DNA from: a virus
DNA: 64,000 nucleotides
Virus record (IMG/VR): IMGVR_UViG_3300029288_000158
Strand: one strand, 5' to 3'
Under the pieces are notes generated by a model that was not told the DNA's origin, made no database searches, and was given only the letters and a program-made list of their open reading frames with translations. Every line of letters starts with the position of its first letter. The stretch's first letter is position 1. This document shows, in pieces, positions 5,266-50,582 of this stretch. A program made the translations under genes and the position numbers.

Positions 5266-5489
5266 CCGATAATTTTATTCAACGCGCAAAAGAAAAACAC
5301 GGAAACAAATTCGATTACTCTAAGGTTGAATACAAAAGCCGTTTGGAAAAAGTAATCATTATTTGTTCGGTTCATGGTGAATTTGAACAAGTTGCGAAGG
5401 ACCATTTGTCTGGACGAGGATGTTTGAAATGCGCTAGAGATAAACAAAAGAAATGGATTGATTCCCATATTTATACAAAGAAGAAGTGA
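5262..5489 (+). CDS. small Cys-rich protein (C..HG..C..C zinc-ribbon-like); possible DNA-binding partner of the downstream GIY-YIG-like ORF
   Basis: Track ORF, ATGA-coupled on both sides. Motif CSVHGEF...GRGCLKCA. Confidence 0.5.
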   Translation: MTDNFIQRAKEKHGNKFDYSKVEYKSRLEKVIIICSVHGEFEQVAKDHLSGRGCLKCARDKQKKWIDSHIYTKKK

Positions 5490-6556
5490 AAATGGAAAAG
5501 CACATTCTTTACAGGTGGTTCAATACAAACGATGAATTGTTGTATGTTGGAATAACCAAAAATGCGTATAATAGACACAAACAACATATTGCTGAAAAAG
5601 AATGGTGTGTGTTTGAAGAATTGAAACACACAACATATGAATATTTTGAATCAAGAGAACTGCTAAACGAAGCCGAAAAACTTGCGATTGTTAACGAGAA
5701 ACCAAAATACAATGTAACACACAACGAAAATCCTGTTGCTTATCGTAAACCAACATACGAGCCTAAAAAGCGCCACAAAAAAGAAATCATTGTTCGTGAA
5801 ACTGTTAAAATTAAAGAAGTTGAAATTGTTCCGAAGAATATTTCAGATGTTGAATACAAACACTTGCGGCAATGTCTGAAAGATAAAAAAGGACAAGGTT
5901 TGAATTCGTGTTTGCGCGGATTGTATGATAGATATTCAAAGCACGACAGAACTTATATGTATGAAGATGAATTTGTTTTGAAACATATTATCAAAACAGA
6001 ATTGGATAATCTAACCACGGCAAATCTTTATAACAACGAAATCAACAAGATAAGATATTCAAATACAATAATTACAATCATTTGGAATTGGTTTCGGACT
6101 TGTCAGAATTCTGAATTTGGACTTCCAAGTTTTGTAATAGATTGGGAACATATTTCTAAATTGTTTTTTGAATTTGAAGGAGAACAGAAAAGTATTTTTG
6201 AAATTTTGTTGAAGTTGAGTGCGACTGACTATCCAAAAACAGAAGGTATATCGTTTGGTAATAAAAACATTTGGGTGAGCTATTTTGAAATGTTATTCGC
6301 TTCTATTTTCAAAGTATATCGCGAAACAATTCTTTCTTTTTTAATTGAAGATGTTCCGGACATTCGGACTATAACAGGTGAAACAGAAATAAGAGAACGA
6401 GACTCATATCTTTTCTTCGGCGTTTCTATGATATCAATTAATGATTGGATGAATATTTCTTTTGAAAAAGAATTTAGTCTTCTTGGAGCGGAATTAAATG
6501 AATTTATAGATGTTATTGATTCATATATTGATGTTGATTTGGAAAGTGTGGCATAA
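5486..6556 (+). CDS. GIY-YIG superfamily protein (T5orf172-like N-terminal domain LLYVGITKN...R.KQH) with a long C-terminal extension
   Basis: GIY-YIG-type motif at residues 18-35. 356-aa track ORF. Confidence 0.5.
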   Translation: MKMEKHILYRWFNTNDELLYVGITKNAYNRHKQHIAEKEWCVFEELKHTTYEYFESRELLNEAEKLAIVNEKPKYNVTHNENPVAYRKPTYEPKKRHKKEIIVRETVKIKEVEIVPKNISDVEYKHLRQCLKDKKGQGLNSCLRGLYDRYSKHDRTYMYEDEFVLKHIIKTELDNLTTANLYNNEINKIRYSNTIITIIWNWFRTCQNSEFGLPSFVIDWEHISKLFFEFEGEQKSIFEILLKLSATDYPKTEGISFGNKNIWVSYFEMLFASIFKVYRETILSFLIEDVPDIRTITGETEIRERDSYLFFGVSMISINDWMNISFEKEFSLLGAELNEFIDVIDSYIDVDLESVA

Positions 6557-15406: not shown

Positions 15407-15607
15407 ATGAAACAAATCGTCAAAACAATTTTCGGTTCTCATCTTTACGGAACTTCTACTCCTGAATCCGATACAGATTTCAAAGCTGTTCATATGTATT
15501 CTATTCAGGAAATTCTTCTGAAAAAAGACAAAGATAATATTGATTCAAGCACAAATAAGAAAACTAAGACACTAAATACATGTAGATGTTTCGTAGTTAC
15601 AAGATAA
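15407..15607 (+). pseudogene. N-terminal fragment of a Pol-beta-superfamily nucleotidyltransferase (GS..YG....SDxD motif), apparently truncated by the downstream TnpB element
   Basis: MKQIVKTIFGSHLYGTSTPESDTDFKAV is the classic NTase N-terminal motif. The frame then runs into non-homologous sequence and stops inside the tnpB start region. Confidence 0.45.
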
Positions 15608-16857
15608 GATTAGAGACAAACTCAATCCAAACCTCGGCACTTCACCAGAATTGTCAATCGGCTCGTTACGCTTACAATTGGGCTCTGACTAATCAAATCT
15701 CCGCAACAGAACAAGCTAAAGAACTTGCTAAAACAACAAACACCAAACCCATCTACCCTAAAGTTAGTTCTTTTAGCTGGAGTGCTGAGTGGACAAATTT
15801 AAAAAAGAGCGTTCCTTGGTTGAGAGAAGTTTCAAAATGGCCAGCGCAACAAGCATTCCGACATCTTGAACAAGCATACAAAAGATTTTTCAATAAAGGT
15901 GGTTATCCCAAATTCAAGAAATTCTCCGATGCTACAAGTTATACCGAAGGCTGTGTAAGAGTAGGCTACGACTACATTAAGTTACCAAAGATAGGTAAAG
16001 TCAAACTTTCGAGAAAAGGATGGGCTGTTCAAGAAGAAGTAGAACTGTCTTTAGCAACAATTTCGTTTGACGGAGAACACTGGTTTGTTTCTTTTTACTT
16101 GAAAAATAACAACCAGCCTAAACAACTACCAGATTTAACAAATATACTAGAAGATGAAATTCTTGGAGTAGATTTGGGTATAAAGGATTTGGCTATTTGT
16201 TCCGACGGCGAGGTTGTTCCAAACCCAAAAACCTACAAAAAACATCTGAAAAAGTTAAAAAGATTCCAACGAAAATTATCAAAAAAGAAAAAAGGCTCTA
16301 AGAACAGAGAAAAAGCTAAAAGAAAACTAAGAAGAATTCATAACAAAATTCGGAACATTCGCCTAGACAACATCCACAAAATGACATCAAAAATAGTGAA
16401 ATCACAACCTAAAATGATTGTCCTCGAAACCCTAAGACCAAAGAACATGATGAAAAATCACAAATTAGCACAAAGTATAGCCGACGCATCATTCGGAGAA
16501 ATTGTGAGACAGTTCACCTACAAATGTGAATGGAATGGTGTTCACCTTCTTCGTGCGCATCAGTTCTACCCAAGTTCTCAATTTTGTTCTTCATGTGGTC
16601 ACCAAAACAAAAACTTGAAATTAAAAGATAGAGAGTGGATTTGTTCAGAATGCGGAGCAGCCCACGATAGAGATTTCAACGCCGCTAAAAATTTACAATT
16701 TTACGGCTATTGGCTGAACAGCCAGTCTACCGAGGGTTCCTCGGAAAGTTACGCTTGTGGAGGAGATAGGTTGCAGTTCCTTAAAGAACAGTGCTCTCCA
16801 ATAAAACAAGAAATTAAAGATGGAAAAACAAAGAAACCTTGTTTGAATGTCTAAGAT
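15545..16857 (+). mobile_element. IS200/IS605-family TnpB-only (IS1341-like) insertion; ends approximate
   Basis: tnpB sits between two pieces of an apparent NTase-like gene. No tnpA is present. Confidence 0.5.
15586..16854 (+). CDS. tnpB: TnpB (OrfB) RNA-guided nuclease of the IS200/IS605 family
   Basis: RuvC-I ILGVDLGIKDLAICSDG, RuvC-II MIVLETL, zinc finger CSSCGH...CSECG, RuvC-III HDRDFNAAKNL. N-terminal YKIRL...ARYAYNWAL. Confidence 0.9.
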   Translation: MFRSYKIRLETNSIQTSALHQNCQSARYAYNWALTNQISATEQAKELAKTTNTKPIYPKVSSFSWSAEWTNLKKSVPWLREVSKWPAQQAFRHLEQAYKRFFNKGGYPKFKKFSDATSYTEGCVRVGYDYIKLPKIGKVKLSRKGWAVQEEVELSLATISFDGEHWFVSFYLKNNNQPKQLPDLTNILEDEILGVDLGIKDLAICSDGEVVPNPKTYKKHLKKLKRFQRKLSKKKKGSKNREKAKRKLRRIHNKIRNIRLDNIHKMTSKIVKSQPKMIVLETLRPKNMMKNHKLAQSIADASFGEIVRQFTYKCEWNGVHLLRAHQFYPSSQFCSSCGHQNKNLKLKDREWICSECGAAHDRDFNAAKNLQFYGYWLNSQSTEGSSESYACGGDRLQFLKEQCSPIKQEIKDGKTKKPCLNV

Positions 16858-24328: not shown

Positions 24329-25170
24329 ATTCTGTTGACAATTGTGATGTGATTTTTACAAACGACGTTTATCCTGAAAATGTTTTGTCTTGTGGAAAAA
24401 GAAAAATTAAACGAATGGATGGCGTTTTTTGGCAAGAAGATTTCAAAGAACGAAATGAAAAATATAATCTTGCTGCGGAACAATCAGACCACGTTATTTT
24501 CATTTCCGAATATTCTAAGAAATCATTTGAAACACTTTACAAATCACAAATTGAAAATTGCTCGGTAATAACTCATTGGGTGGAAAAGAAGTTTGATTAT
24601 TTTTACGATTGTCAATTTAACAATACATTCTTTTCAATGGCAACGGATTGGAATAGAAAAGAAAAAAGATTGAGTGAAATAGTTAAGTTTGTTGAATTGA
24701 CGGGCTGCAAAATAAATCTTGTTGGGAAATGTGAATATGAAGTTCCGGAAAATATTACTAAGTTTGGATATTTGGAACCAGATTCAATAGAGTTTCTTTC
24801 GGTGATAAAACAATCTTCAGCATTTTTAAATCTAACGTGTAAAGATGCTGCTACAAAAACGGTTTGTCAAGCAATCAACTATGGTCTTCCGGTTTTGTTT
24901 TCAAATTCCGGGGGTGTTTCAGAACTTGTTTTGGATTGTGGGGTTGGAATAAAAGAAGAAGAAGAAATTGATTTTCTTAAAAATGTTCCAGAATTAAAAC
25001 AACAGAATATAATTTTTGGATTTGAACAATTTGTAGAACAATATGCCAAACTCAAAGATAACATTGATAACAGAATGAAAGACGATTTGTTGATGATAGC
25101 TGTTGGAAAATATTTTGAAATAATTAAAGGAGAAATAACAAATGAAAATGAAGAATGTAAACATCATTAG
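24277..25170 (+). CDS. glycosyltransferase-like protein (GT-B C-terminal domain-like). Start is uncertain (TTG at 24277 or ATG at 24415).
   Basis: ...NLVGKCEYEV...GLPVLFSNSGGVSELV resembles the GT4/GT1 C-terminal Rossmann domain. Confidence 0.45.
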   Translation: MFGLYNSLQQEVRGEDVDSVDNCDVIFTNDVYPENVLSCGKRKIKRMDGVFWQEDFKERNEKYNLAAEQSDHVIFISEYSKKSFETLYKSQIENCSVITHWVEKKFDYFYDCQFNNTFFSMATDWNRKEKRLSEIVKFVELTGCKINLVGKCEYEVPENITKFGYLEPDSIEFLSVIKQSSAFLNLTCKDAATKTVCQAINYGLPVLFSNSGGVSELVLDCGVGIKEEEEIDFLKNVPELKQQNIIFGFEQFVEQYAKLKDNIDNRMKDDLLMIAVGKYFEIIKGEITNENEECKHH

Positions 25171-25582: not shown

Positions 25583-25620
25583 TTTTTAAAAAGGAGAAAT
25601 AACAAATTATTAATCCTGAA

Positions 25621-25824
25621 ATGAAAAAGACAATTCTTACGGCGCTTTCGAATCATTTGGGAGATGATTTGTATAAGGCTAAGAATGCTTTCAAAAACTA
25701 TACTCCGAAGATGATGAATGAACAATACGGTCATTCTGGTCAGACACCAAATAAAATTTTAGAATCTTATCAGAAACACTACGACAAAGTAACTGAAGCA
25801 ATTCGTTTTGTAGAAAGGTTGTGA
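25621..25824 (+). CDS. hypothetical protein
   Basis: Track ORF. Confidence 0.5.
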   Translation: MKKTILTALSNHLGDDLYKAKNAFKNYTPKMMNEQYGHSGQTPNKILESYQKHYDKVTEAIRFVERL

Positions 25825-46501: not shown

Positions 46502-47314
46502 TTGATGATATACGGTTTTATATATTTGACAAAAAATTTAGTTAACGGTAAGATTTATATTGGACAGCGGGTTTACAAAAACAATAATAGCGACAAAGAG
46601 TATCTTGGTTCGGGAAGTATTTTATCAAAAGCAATAAAGAAATATGGCAAAGAAAACTTTGAGCGGACGACATTGGAAGAGTGTGAGAACCAACAAAATT
46701 TAGACGACAGAGAAAAATATTACATTTCTGAATACAATTCAACCAATAAAGAAATAGGATATAATATTAGAAAAGGCGGTAGAGGTTATCAGTCGCATTC
46801 GCCAAAAACTTGTAATAAAATAAGTGAGGGGTTAAAACTTTATTTTTCAAATCCAGAAAACAGAAAGAAACAAAGTCGTCATGTCAGTGAAGAGACACGG
46901 AGAAAAATTGGCGAAGCTGGTAAAGGGCGGAAAAAGACTGAAGAAACTATTAGAAAACAACTTGAAACATTTTATAAAAATAGAGAAGCAGGAATACCAA
47001 TAGATCGATCTTTTGATACTCCGGAGTGGCGAGAAAAATTTAGAAACGCGCATGTTGGAAAAACACATCACACCGAATATATGACAAAAGAGTGGTTAAA
47101 AGAACAAAGCGAAAAACAAATAGCAATAGATAAACCGAAATATAAGATAGATGTTTGTAAAGATGGAGAAGTGTTGTCAGAAAATCTATCAGCAAGTTTG
47201 GTCATAAAAACATATAGATTTTCGGCTGGGTGGTTTCAAGATAAATTAAATAGAAGAACCGATGAGTTTGAATATCGCGGATATAAAATTGTAATAAAAC
47301 AAAGACCTAATTAA
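46502..47314 (+). CDS. GIY-YIG homing endonuclease with NUMOD-like C-terminal DNA-binding repeats
   Basis: IYGFIYLTKNLVNGKIYIGQ...YLGSG...NIRKGG and repeated S.ETRRKIGEA motifs. Confidence 0.85.
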   Translation: MMIYGFIYLTKNLVNGKIYIGQRVYKNNNSDKEYLGSGSILSKAIKKYGKENFERTTLEECENQQNLDDREKYYISEYNSTNKEIGYNIRKGGRGYQSHSPKTCNKISEGLKLYFSNPENRKKQSRHVSEETRRKIGEAGKGRKKTEETIRKQLETFYKNREAGIPIDRSFDTPEWREKFRNAHVGKTHHTEYMTKEWLKEQSEKQIAIDKPKYKIDVCKDGEVLSENLSASLVIKTYRFSAGWFQDKLNRRTDEFEYRGYKIVIKQRPN

Positions 47315-47732
47315 AATTTGTCCATTTTCTCATTTTCTCAGCTTGTTCGTATAAATGTTTTAATTGGCCCTGAAGTTGATTGATTTTTCCAAGAATTCCG
47401 TTCAGTCTATTAGGAATGATTCTGCAATTTTCTTCACAATAGTTTCCATTAGAATCAATCCTATCAATGCTTACGACTTCTCCAGCTTTTATAATCTTTT
47501 CTCTAATTTCTTTTCGCTCTATCCACCATGTTCTGAATTCATCAAATGACCAAATGACATGGATGTTCTTCTTCAAATAAATTCCAGAACGAACTCTTTG
47601 ATTCATTCCATTCCAATATCTTTTAATAATTTGTTCTTCGGTTAATGGTTTCTTTTGTTTCTGAGAGTTTAAGTAATTTCTTCCAATTTGTAAATCGTCG
47701 TCAATGTAATCCATAAAAGTATATAGAGGCAT
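47307..47732 (-). CDS. HNH homing endonuclease
   Basis: SIDRIDSNGNYCEENCRIIPNRLN core. Minus strand, convergent with the GIY-YIG gene and overlapping it by 8 nt. Confidence 0.7.
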   Translation of the reverse strand: MPLYTFMDYIDDDLQIGRNYLNSQKQKKPLTEEQIIKRYWNGMNQRVRSGIYLKKNIHVIWSFDEFRTWWIERKEIREKIIKAGEVVSIDRIDSNGNYCEENCRIIPNRLNGILGKINQLQGQLKHLYEQAEKMRKWTNFN

Positions 47733-47735
47733 AAA

Positions 47736-48068
47736 TTGATTTTTAACAAATGTAACCAGCTACATATTGAAGAGAACGATACAATCCACGACGAGTGTTA
47801 TGATTGCCCTTCGTGTGGAAGTAAATGTTATTCTTCGTGTGTAATGGAAAAAGTTACAACAAAATCCCCAATTTCTAATACTATCTCTATTGACTCTATC
47901 GGTCCAGATAAGATTATTTTTTGTAAGTGTGATTGTGGACATACGTGGCTTGAATTCTGGAAACCAAACCATCATCGTTCTTTAATTAGAGGAACCACGA
48001 TGAAGAATTATTTGGAATTTGGAGCTTTGAAGAATTTTGTTTTTGATGTCAACAAGTTTAAGGTTTAG
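47736..48068 (+). CDS. Cys-rich hypothetical protein; start uncertain
   Basis: Track ORF (TTG). An internal ATG is at 47841. Confidence 0.4.
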   Translation: MIFNKCNQLHIEENDTIHDECYDCPSCGSKCYSSCVMEKVTTKSPISNTISIDSIGPDKIIFCKCDCGHTWLEFWKPNHHRSLIRGTTMKNYLEFGALKNFVFDVNKFKV

Positions 48069-48082
48069 AAAAGGAGAACAGT

Positions 48083-48502
48083 ATGTATATTGAAGAAAAA
48101 GATTGGGAAATTGTCAAAAATAAATTCATTCTTACGATTACCTGCGATAAGAATGATGCCGATTATATCACTAAAAAGTCAGAGTTTGATGCTGTAAATT
48201 CGGAATACTTTAACGCTTCAATGTTTGTTGATGTTGTTAGAGTTATCAAAAAGCTAACGGGTGGGGAATTGGAAAAAACATATCAAAAGCTTACGGCAGA
48301 TGATATTGTTACTTTGTATAGCTTTGATACATATGGTCAAGATGAAGATTGGGTAGAAAAATATGTAAAGCCAATCGGGGAATATTCAATCGTGGATGAT
48401 GTTCGTGATTGGGATTCTATGGTCGCTGATTTGTTTCCAACCGACACAGAAACTTGTTGGGGTGAAAGTCGACAATTTAGAATTAGGGGTGTCATTCTGT
48501 AA
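48083..48502 (+). CDS. hypothetical protein
   Basis: SD AAAAGGAGAACAGTATG. Confidence 0.55.
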   Translation: MYIEEKDWEIVKNKFILTITCDKNDADYITKKSEFDAVNSEYFNASMFVDVVRVIKKLTGGELEKTYQKLTADDIVTLYSFDTYGQDEDWVEKYVKPIGEYSIVDDVRDWDSMVADLFPTDTETCWGESRQFRIRGVIL

Positions 48503-48557
48503 AGGAAATTGAATTGCTCTATATTGATTCTAACGGCATCTGTAGAAAGCTGGTGTG

Positions 48558-48941
48558 ATGATGAAAAACAAAGAAGGTAATTGCGTCGCTGTAGGAAAGT
48601 TGACAAGTTATGAAGAAAAACATGGTAATGCTCACTATGTTTTGACAATTGATTTGATTAGCGAAACCGAGGAAAGCAAAGACAATTTCGAAGCTTTGGG
48701 TGACCTTGGTTATGCAGATGTTGCTTGTCAATGTATAAAACAAAAAGAACCTCTTGAAATTAGTAACAAAGTAAAACTTGGAAAAATTGAAGATTATCTA
48801 CAGATTATTCTTTCTGATTCGGATGAAAAAAGAAAGAGAGCAAAAACAATCAAAAATAAAACTATGAAAGCTTCTGTAAAAATGTATGCAGAATTCTTTC
48901 ATATCACTGATGGCCGCAAAACCACTAAAAAGGAGAACTAA
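48558..48941 (+). CDS. hypothetical protein
   Basis: Track ORF. Its last codons carry the SD for infC. Confidence 0.5.
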   Translation: MMKNKEGNCVAVGKLTSYEEKHGNAHYVLTIDLISETEESKDNFEALGDLGYADVACQCIKQKEPLEISNKVKLGKIEDYLQIILSDSDEKRKRAKTIKNKTMKASVKMYAEFFHITDGRKTTKKEN

Positions 48942-48942
48942 A

Positions 48943-49455
48943 ATTTCTACTAACCTTGATACTATCCGCGTAAATGACGATATTCGTGTTCGTGAAATCC
49001 GTTTGATTGATGAAAATGGAAATCAGATTGGAATTGTTCCTACAACTTCCGCAAAACAGGAAGCCTCTTCATTGGGTCTTGACCTCGTTGAAATCAATCC
49101 AAATGCTCGTCCTCCTGTTTGTAAGATGATGAACTTTGGAAAATACAAGTTTGAACTAAAAAAGAAAGAAAAGGAAGCTAAGAGTCGTCAGAAGGTTGTT
49201 GAATTGAAGCAAATCAATTTCCACCCAAACACTCAATACCACGACTACACATATCGTCTGGAACAAGCCAAAGGATTCATCAAATCCGGAAACAAGGTTA
49301 AGGCTACTGTAACTTTCCGTGGTCGTGAAATGAATTTCCTTTCAAATGGAAAAGAGATTCTTGATAAGATGACTACTGATTTGAAAGAAGTTGCGACAGT
49401 TGAAGTAAACGAAATGGAAGGCAAACAAATGTTTGTCGTCTTCCGTCCGGTGTGA
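48943..49455 (+). CDS. infC: translation initiation factor IF-3 homolog with a non-canonical ATT start
   Basis: Collinear with bacterial IF3 (IRVREIRLIDENGNQIGIV..., GLDLVEINPNARPPVCKMMNFGKYK, ATVTFRGREM). No in-frame ATG or GTG near the N-terminus. AAGGAGA lies 7 nt before the ATT. Confidence 0.8.
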   Translation: MSTNLDTIRVNDDIRVREIRLIDENGNQIGIVPTTSAKQEASSLGLDLVEINPNARPPVCKMMNFGKYKFELKKKEKEAKSRQKVVELKQINFHPNTQYHDYTYRLEQAKGFIKSGNKVKATVTFRGREMNFLSNGKEILDKMTTDLKEVATVEVNEMEGKQMFVVFRPV

Positions 49456-49458
49456 TGT

Positions 49459-49623
49459 ATGAGAATAGTCATGATATTAGATTCTAATTGGGGAAGTATA
49501 AACCGAAGCAATAGACATATGGAGAATGAAATAATTTCTTGGTATAAGACCACACAACATACTTCAGGAAAGTTATATACGAAAAAATCAAATGCCCGAA
49601 TCAAGAAACGGTTCGGTCAATGA
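49459..49623 (+). CDS. small-protein superfamily member, type B (...ARIKKRFGQ)
   Basis: ATGA-coupled to the next gene. Confidence 0.45.
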   Translation: MRIVMILDSNWGSINRSNRHMENEIISWYKTTQHTSGKLYTKKSNARIKKRFGQ

Positions 49624-49850
49624 AAATTATCTTGAAATATGCCGGTGTAGATTCCAGGATTCCTTTTAGAAAACAAACAGGGAAAATATATTTAACGGAA
49701 GGGTATGATGACGTTGTAAAACTTTTTCGCAAAGATTTTTCAAAAGAATCTCGGGATTGTAAAGAAGAAGATATCTGGTGGAATATAACAAATGCTAGAT
49801 TTTATAAACGAATGAAAAGAGAATGGGTGTACGACTATATTGAAGATTAA
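49620..49850 (+). CDS. small-protein superfamily member (MKIILKY...WWNITNARFYKRMKREW)
   Basis: Track ORF. Paralog of 41192-41425. Confidence 0.55.
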   Translation: MKIILKYAGVDSRIPFRKQTGKIYLTEGYDDVVKLFRKDFSKESRDCKEEDIWWNITNARFYKRMKREWVYDYIED

Positions 49851-50007
49851 AACTTATATTTTTCAAGAAACTAAAGAATTTTATGGTAGTATAGCGCCAT
49901 CTCCAACCGGAGATAGTATTATTACTTTTGCAGATAACAATTCATATGTAGGAGCCTATCTTCCGTTAAACAAACGACGACTTAAAAAAGCATTCGGTAT
50001 AAAATGA
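49840..50007 (+). CDS. small-protein superfamily member, type B (TTG start, reads (M)KIKTYIF...RRLKKAFGIK)
   Basis: No ATG in frame. TTGAAGATTAAA mimics the family start ATGAAAATTAAA. ATGA-coupled downstream. Confidence 0.35.
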   Translation: MKIKTYIFQETKEFYGSIAPSPTGDSIITFADNNSYVGAYLPLNKRRLKKAFGIK

Positions 50008-50204
50008 AAATTAGAACAATAATAAACAACTACTGGCATTGTTATTATGTTATATGTCTAGAAACGAACAACCCCGATTTCCCGTTCGATAGGCTATTCG
50101 TATATAATCTATCATTCAACTACAAAAAATTTGGTTATTCTTACCGTCTAATCTCAATCATTGACGGAACCTGGCCAAACAGACCGAAGAAAAATCCAGC
50201 TTGA
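50004..50204 (+). CDS. small-protein superfamily member (MKIRTIINNYW...)
   Basis: Track ORF. Its stop is the TGA inside the -35 of the next promoter cassette. Confidence 0.5.
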   Translation: MKIRTIINNYWHCYYVICLETNNPDFPFDRLFVYNLSFNYKKFGYSYRLISIIDGTWPNRPKKNPA

Positions 50205-50231
50205 CTTTCGCCTCCGGCTTCTTTATATTCC
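50183..50231 (+). promoter_or_regulatory. conserved promoter cassette copy (-35 50201, -10 TATATT 50224)
   Basis: CCGAAGAAAAATCCAGCTTGACT. Confidence 0.65.
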
Positions 50232-50252
50232 TTAGTAATACGGAGGTTTAAT

Positions 50253-50582
50253 ATGATTTGTGATTTTTGTTACAAAGAACATTCTAATACTGTTTATCTA
50301 GACAAAGAAGTTTCAGATAAAAAGATTTGTCCAACATGTTCGGCTATATCTGATAGAGTTCAAATTAAAGATGGACTAAATCCTGGGTTGATTTTGAGTG
50401 AAGACAAAACATATATTACTAATAAATTTGGGTTTTTAAGAATTCCGGTAATAAACATTCCTGGAAAACCTAACTCATACAAATTTTATCTTGATGACGA
50501 ACCTCTCTACGAGTATTTGTTTGCTGTAAGAGACAACAAAGTAACCCGCTTTAGGTTTGTTCATAAGAAAGACAAACTATGA
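50253..50582 (+). CDS. zinc-ribbon protein (CDFC...CPTC)
   Basis: Track ORF. Confidence 0.55.
   Translation: MICDFCYKEHSNTVYLDKEVSDKKICPTCSAISDRVQIKDGLNPGLILSEDKTYITNKFGFLRIPVINIPGKPNSYKFYLDDEPLYEYLFAVRDNKVTRFRFVHKKDKL

Follow-up and report, generated by a model that had tools for sequence, protein, structure and literature searches.

Where does a phage copy of infC, which encodes translation initiation factor IF3, begin to be translated, and does its start codon tie its synthesis to IF3 activity as in bacteria? The question is raised by a gene in a stretch of 64,000 nucleotides (hereafter the window), which is part of a 305,169-bp metagenomic jumbo-phage contig, k141_806084 of ENA ERZ27247363. 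An earlier note on this DNA had proposed that the gene starts at ATT 48943, behind a Shine-Dalgarno (SD) sequence, and that this mirrors the autoregulation of bacterial infC. Jumbo phages were already known to carry IF3 genes, and neither PMC7824862 nor PMC11895373, which mention them, discusses the start codon. A literature search returned no paper describing a phage infC that starts at AUU, an absence that is not proof of novelty.

Alongside the IF3 gene, the window carries an rIIA homologue, an RNA ligase, a Lon-like ATP-dependent protease, a PurZ-like enzyme, homing-endonuclease-like genes and many small ORFs; a tRNA search of the window found none. Nearly all genes appear to lie on the plus strand until about 60-61 kb, and GC skew is positive to about 60 kb and then reversed. 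The minus-strand gene at 61674-62825 matches phrog_1211, a PurZ-type adenylosuccinate synthetase family (7.2e-48), which hints that the phage might make 2-aminoadenine DNA. The phage DNA also holds mobile-element genes on the plus strand: 15586-16854 encodes a transposase-family protein (phrog_506, 3e-114), 5486-6556 has an endonuclease PHROG match (phrog_3312), and the N-terminus of 46502-47314 has the look of a GIY-YIG-type homing endonuclease.

Counted from the ATT, the gene encodes 170 amino acids followed by TGA, a full-length two-domain IF3 (Table 1). Searches with the 189-aa ORF gave 106 bits for the Pfam domain IF3_N (1.1e-30; cutoff 26.9) and 87.6 bits for IF3_C (5.2e-25; cutoff 34.8), whilst the NCBIfam infC equivalog TIGR00168 scored 195 bits against a cutoff of 60, with model positions 4-167 of 170 covered. 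The match to phrog_9787, annotated as translation initiation factor, was of similar extent (4.2e-45; profile positions 3-166 of 168). The 170 residues compare with 171 in Geobacillus stearothermophilus and 180 in Escherichia coli IF3, and the phage protein aligns end to end with the solved structures of both, ungapped or nearly so, at about 45% identity over its full length. The nearest bacterial IF3s, at about 50% identity, are scattered over many phyla. Between the two domains, the translation reads as a Lys-rich linker, KYKFELKKKEKEAKSRQK. In E. coli IF3, R25, Q33 and R66 contact the elbow of the initiator tRNA and contribute to AUU discrimination, R25 being an invariant residue that fidelity needs (PMC9723500). 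The phage protein matches R25 with R20 and Q33 with Q28, both identical residues, and has K61 as a conservative swap for R66; none of the three varies in the clade of related phage genes described below. The FRGRE motif of the C-domain is likewise intact and clade-invariant.

Table 1. Features at the IF3 locus of the window
Feature	Position	Strand	Basis or remark
Upstream phage gene, no assigned function	48558..48941	+	ORF list and public gene call; TAA at 48939-48941
Two in-frame ATGs, rejected as IF3 starts	48886-48888, 48910-48912	+	No SD, inside other-frame gene, missing in relatives
Shine-Dalgarno AAGGAG	48930..48935	+	Read directly; inside the upstream gene's last codons
ATT, proposed initiation codon	48943..48945	+	7-nt spacer after AAGGAG; invariant in nine lineages
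Phage IF3 (infC) coding sequence	48943..49455	+	TIGR00168, phrog_9787, alignment to solved IF3s; TGA at 49453-49455
IF3 N-terminal domain, PF05198	48970..49179	+	Pfam, residues 29-98 of the 189-aa ORF
Internal TTG (Leu21), gene callers' start in relatives, rejected	49003..49005	+	Codon variation, coding constraint
IF3 C-terminal domain, PF00707	49198..49449	+	Pfam, residues 105-188 of the 189-aa ORF; Lys-rich linker before the domain

Direct reading places AAGGAG, a 7-nt spacer and the ATT exactly as the earlier note had them. It was also right that the SD is embedded in the last codons of the preceding gene, whose 3' end reads AAG GAG AAC TAA, with the stop 1 nt before the ATT. Initiation in this phage is SD-led: AAGGAG occurs at 28 sites on the plus strand of the window and at 2 on the minus strand, and 15 of the 28 are followed, at 4-10 nt, by a canonical start that opens an ORF of 40 codons or more. 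Moreover, the 100 nt around the ATT fold worse than 193 of 200 shuffles (z = +1.82), the weak folding expected of an open initiation region. The string AAGGAG-N7-ATT is present in the window in 3 copies against 1.16 expected, and 3 copies are reached in 12 of 100 shuffles. It is not significant by itself, and therefore the case for the ATT cannot rest on the window alone. Its significance comes from two further facts, namely that the ATT falls exactly at the N-terminal edge of the clade-wide homology and that SD and ATT are kept in eight diverged relatives.

A second SD-ATT candidate lies at 25591-25623, where AAGGAGAAATAACAA is followed by ATT 25606. The 72-codon ORF that opens there lacks any canonical in-frame start further upstream. 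The same 15-nt string recurs at 25127, there before an ATG. A further ATG at 25621, five codons downstream of ATT 25606, leaves the true start of this ORF ambiguous.

The earlier note had argued for the ATT on the grounds that there was no ATG or GTG in frame upstream. That reason does not hold in the window, as the frame, which is open from 48880 onward, includes ATG 48886 and ATG 48910, the latter being the start of the public gene call P0001 (181 aa). Translation from ATG 48910, or from 48886, would give IF3 a basic N-terminal extension of 11 or 19 residues, and the SD-ATT would be a coincidence within a coding region. A basic tail of about 13 residues is likewise present at the N-terminus of E. 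coli IF3. However, no SD-like sequence is found in the 16 nt before either ATG, and both ATGs sit within the conserved upstream gene, read in another frame. This upstream gene is real, since it is homologous to the gene that precedes IF3 in the relative L009 (29% identity, E 1e-12). Furthermore, the residues KRRTK of the putative extension are simply the SD itself in translation. We therefore turn to the relatives, in which the AUU start behind a good SD finds the support that the frame upstream in the window does not give it.

The DNA of close relatives was obtained from exact-protein look-ups of shortened database calls, and the region upstream of each was then read. Nine lineages were compared: the window, L006, L009, L010, L011, L014, L016, L017 and L031. 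Pairwise, they share 50-86% amino acid identity and 27-68% identity at four-fold degenerate sites. A nucleotide search of the phage collection with positions 48000-50500 gave no match, and scans of IMG/VR, of JGI metagenome contigs and of GTDB genomes gave only relatives at 49% identity or less, the JGI and GTDB results being dominated by bacterial infC.

All eight diverged relatives keep an SD (AAGGAG, AGGAG or AAGAGG), a spacer of 6-7 nt and the ATT, after which come a short variable tail and then a conserved IRVND-IR-RE-RL segment. Within the phage clade, the proteins are homologous from the ATT onward, and homology to bacterial IF3 begins 6-9 codons after it. The two ATGs of the window were sought in the relatives' DNA and are present in none. 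Moreover, in six relatives (L006, L009, L010, L011, L016 and L017) a stop closes the frame 7-13 codons ahead of the ATT, and no ATG, GTG or TTG lies between that stop and the conserved N-domain. The sole upstream start candidates in L014 and L015 lie inside a terminator-like hairpin, and the frame differs between these two near-identical contigs. L031 has an SD-less ATG overlapping the preceding gene, exactly like the window. Lastly, the SD of L016 stands in a different frame relative to the ATT, which shows that the conserved element is a ribosome-binding site at the nucleotide level and not a peptide. We consider it improbable that IF3 is made from ATG 48910 or ATG 48886 as its proper start, although some initiation at these codons is possible. 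On the comparison of the nine lineages, translation of the phage infC probably starts mainly at AUU 48943.

Two other arrangements were considered and rejected. That a +1 frameshift joins the upstream ORF to IF3 is at odds with the upstream gene being on the opposite strand in four relatives. An ATT two codons further upstream in L009 and L017 lies just 1 nt after the SD.

A different start is implied by the database. The closest database proteins (68-81% identity) have been called at odd lengths of 108-169 aa, and many of them start inside the N-domain or comprise the C-domain only. Ten of the 27 closest matches are shortened to 108-158 aa (P0002, P0003, P0004, P0006, P0007, P0009, P0021, P0022, P0023 and P0027), four of these being IF3_C alone; the DNA was read for six of the shortened calls, whilst P0021, P0023 and P0027 were judged by called length alone. 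Such lengths might suggest an inactive fragment, or a C-terminal domain produced alone from an internal start. The internal TTG that gene callers use in relatives was examined as a candidate and rejected: it is CTA in 4 of the 9 lineages, and starting there would remove the residue equivalent to E. coli R25. When the lineages are compared in pairs, the 14 codons ending with the TTG differ synonymously 173 times and non-synonymously 90 times, with CGT/AGA switches at Arg among the differences. This synonymous excess, in the very codons that the callers dropped, indicates that they are translated. Rather than a fragment, which the earlier note had named as a finding that would overturn its proposal, we found both domains intact with scores far above the cutoffs, N-domain codons under coding constraint and 56 alignment columns invariant across the clade. 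That the gene is inactive, or reduced to its C-terminal domain, is in our view very improbable indeed.

The short calls in the relatives arise because gene callers do not allow ATT. Public calls for this IF3 clade (P0001-P0027) are systematically wrong at the 5' end, P0001 being extended and others cut, and surveys of phage translation genes that use such calls will mis-describe the clade. Taken together, domain content, coding constraint and start-site conservation suggest that the locus is probably a functional, full-length jumbo-phage infC, started at AUU 48943 and positioned by the AAGGAG 7 nt upstream.

We then asked whether the codon itself is under selection. The start column is ATT in 9 of 9 lineages, and residues 2-7, directly after it, are variable. 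Three internal columns in which every lineage has Ile are ATT in 8/9, 6/9 and 4/9, being otherwise ATC or ATA. The invariance of the start ATT whilst synonymous sites are near saturation argues for selection on the exact codon. Exceptions exist within the same clade, where L029 starts at ATG and L020 at TTG, and a sister phage group (L193) has TTG. Eleven other phage IF3 genes inspected have starts that look canonical from their sequence: GTG in Agrobacterium phage Atu_ph07 and Sinorhizobium phage Phosso, and ATG in Salmonella phage Munch, LR756500, LR756501, LR756504, LR756511 and the IMG/VR sequences L001-L004. AUU is therefore dispensable for a phage IF3.

Two observations concern these other phages. 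In LR756511 (L027, about 520-535), a 595-kb huge phage, AAGGAG-N7-ATT occurs two codons upstream of the assumed ATG, and its IF3 might start at that ATT. Clp genes recur near IF3 in unrelated phages: ClpX is directly upstream in Atu_ph07 (L022) and Phosso (L024), ClpS is directly downstream in Munch (L023), and a ClpP-family gene lies two genes upstream in L020 and L021.

In bacteria, by comparison, infC overwhelmingly uses AUU, AUA or AUC starts (PMC5472188, PMC1865079), with AUU in Bacillus subtilis and AUC in Streptomyces (PMC5472188; PMC1865079). Among 80 bacterial infC loci taken from genome scans, a sample dominated by Rhodobacterales and ranked with a crude SD scorer, the top start candidate, judged by its SD, was ATA in 42, ATT in 20, ATC in 13, CTG in 2 and canonical in 3, and 27 of the 80 had no canonical start whatever. 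This outcome is in line with the published picture of AUN as usual for infC. On the starts read here, AUU retention marks this clade out among phage IF3 genes, yet it is ordinary for the infC family.

This raises the possibility that the AUU start was merely inherited from an anciently captured bacterial infC, so that it secures a low, non-toxic dose of IF3 with no meaningful feedback or hijacking. Bacterial infC has AUN by default; ATG, GTG or TTG serve relatives and other phages well; and AUU is intrinsically weak, reporter output from it being 6-8-fold below that from AUG or GUG (PMC3592434). However, simple inheritance sits poorly with an ATT that is invariant despite near-saturated synonymous sites, and feedback would be hard to avoid if the host IF3 behaves like that of E. 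coli (PMC5472188, PMC9723500). An AUU start wholly without meaningful feedback is thus possible, though we doubt it.

A further question is whether the SD-ATT acts independently of the preceding gene. IF3 in the window could come mainly from termination-reinitiation, its level following translation of the upstream gene and not initiation by free 30S subunits. The junction ...AAC TAA A ATT is seen in the window, and the analogous thrS-infC junction of E. coli, UAA-GGU-AUU, owes about half of its output to reinitiation and half to de novo initiation (PMC3592434). Relatives, however, do not share this arrangement: L006, L011, L016 and L017 have the upstream gene on the other strand, and in L009, L010 and L014 an intergenic spacer or terminator-like hairpin precedes IF3. 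Given this non-conserved junction, the SD-ATT must function by itself, and reinitiation as the main source of IF3 in the window is unlikely.

The DNA around the gene was also searched for other control elements. An Rfam search of the whole window found no family, hence no L20 leader or other known RNA, and a promoter and terminator scan around the IF3 gene was at chance level. The motif CATAAAAGTATATA occurs at 47712-47725, at the junction of a minus-strand gene and plus-strand genes, and within it is the sole window copy of AAGTATATA. Three small genes (47736-48941) separate this motif from IF3 in the window, and the relatives L011, L016 and L017 have it immediately before the SD of IF3. It may be a phage promoter. 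L014 and L015 have a hairpin resembling a terminator, GAGGGACA...TGTCCCTC and then TTTT (2914-2946 in L014), just upstream of the SD, and IF3 may head its own transcript in these two contigs.

How an AUU start would act on phage IF3 can be sketched from E. coli. There, an AUU start is sufficient for IF3 autoregulation, according to the accounts of Butler 1987 and Sacerdot 1996 given in PMC5472188 and PMC1865079, and in the systems examined IF3 discriminates against any mRNA that starts at AUU (PMC5472188, PMC9723500). By analogy, the phage AUU would be read weakly by the initiator tRNA, and 30S initiation complexes on it would be destabilised by IF3. Synthesis of phage IF3 would be low, and the more IF3 activity host and phage together supply, the lower it would become. 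The outcome would be a self-limiting top-up of IF3 during infection. In the window only, ribosomes terminating at the TAA 1 nt before the AUU may reinitiate, as at E. coli thrS-infC; this coupling of stop and AUU is not conserved in the relatives.

The earlier note went further and suggested that the phage gene plugs into the same fidelity circuit, or hijacks it. Such a role would follow by analogy with E. coli genetics; equally, the AUU may have been inherited and retained just to hold expression low. In a stronger form, the conserved AUU would be a sensor of host IF3, such that the phage factor is made only when host IF3 is limiting, as under host shut-off or an anti-phage attack on translation, perhaps with an altered stringency that would shift start-codon choice towards phage messages, among them possibly further SD-ATT candidates like the one at 25606 of the window. 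We regard this sensor as a long shot. If true, the virus would be rewiring the initiation-fidelity circuit with a gene of its own, and the phage factor would be more than a spare part.

An AUU that has outlasted such deep divergence suggests that a viral initiation factor is expressed under dosage or feedback control. A specialist would not be startled to see AUU retained in a captured infC, and its long-term conservation in a virus is what is noteworthy. An AUU-started phage infC is moreover a simple, testable lead on the interference of giant phages with host translation.

Weak start codons are known to tie the output of some other genes to IF3 activity. The AUU start of E. coli pcnB is controlled by IF3. 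The same is true of the GUC start of Streptomyces sigR (PMC5472188). The phage infC would resemble both in this dependence, and differs in that pcnB and sigR are host genes tuned by host IF3, whereas here the regulated gene would encode an extra, viral IF3. The other jumbo- and huge-phage IF3s of PHROG 9787 (Atu_ph07, Phosso, Munch and LR756500/01/04/11) are, like that of the window, full-length homologues in very large genomes; they differ from it in being 27-47% identical to it and in having starts that appear canonical. The closest parallel is with bacterial infC itself, and the likeness proposed in the earlier note holds at the level of sequence anatomy. Both encode the same two-domain equivalog protein from a non-canonical AUU behind a good SD, in keeping with the AUN norm, and in the window as in E. 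coli thrS-infC a stop codon stands just upstream of the AUU (PMC3592434). The cellular operon context is absent from the phage: in place of the E. coli order thrS-infC-rpmI-rplT there is a jumbo-phage carrier with a phage ORF upstream, small phage ORFs as neighbours, no rpmI or rplT downstream and no L20 leader. That context is not required for the AUU mechanism.
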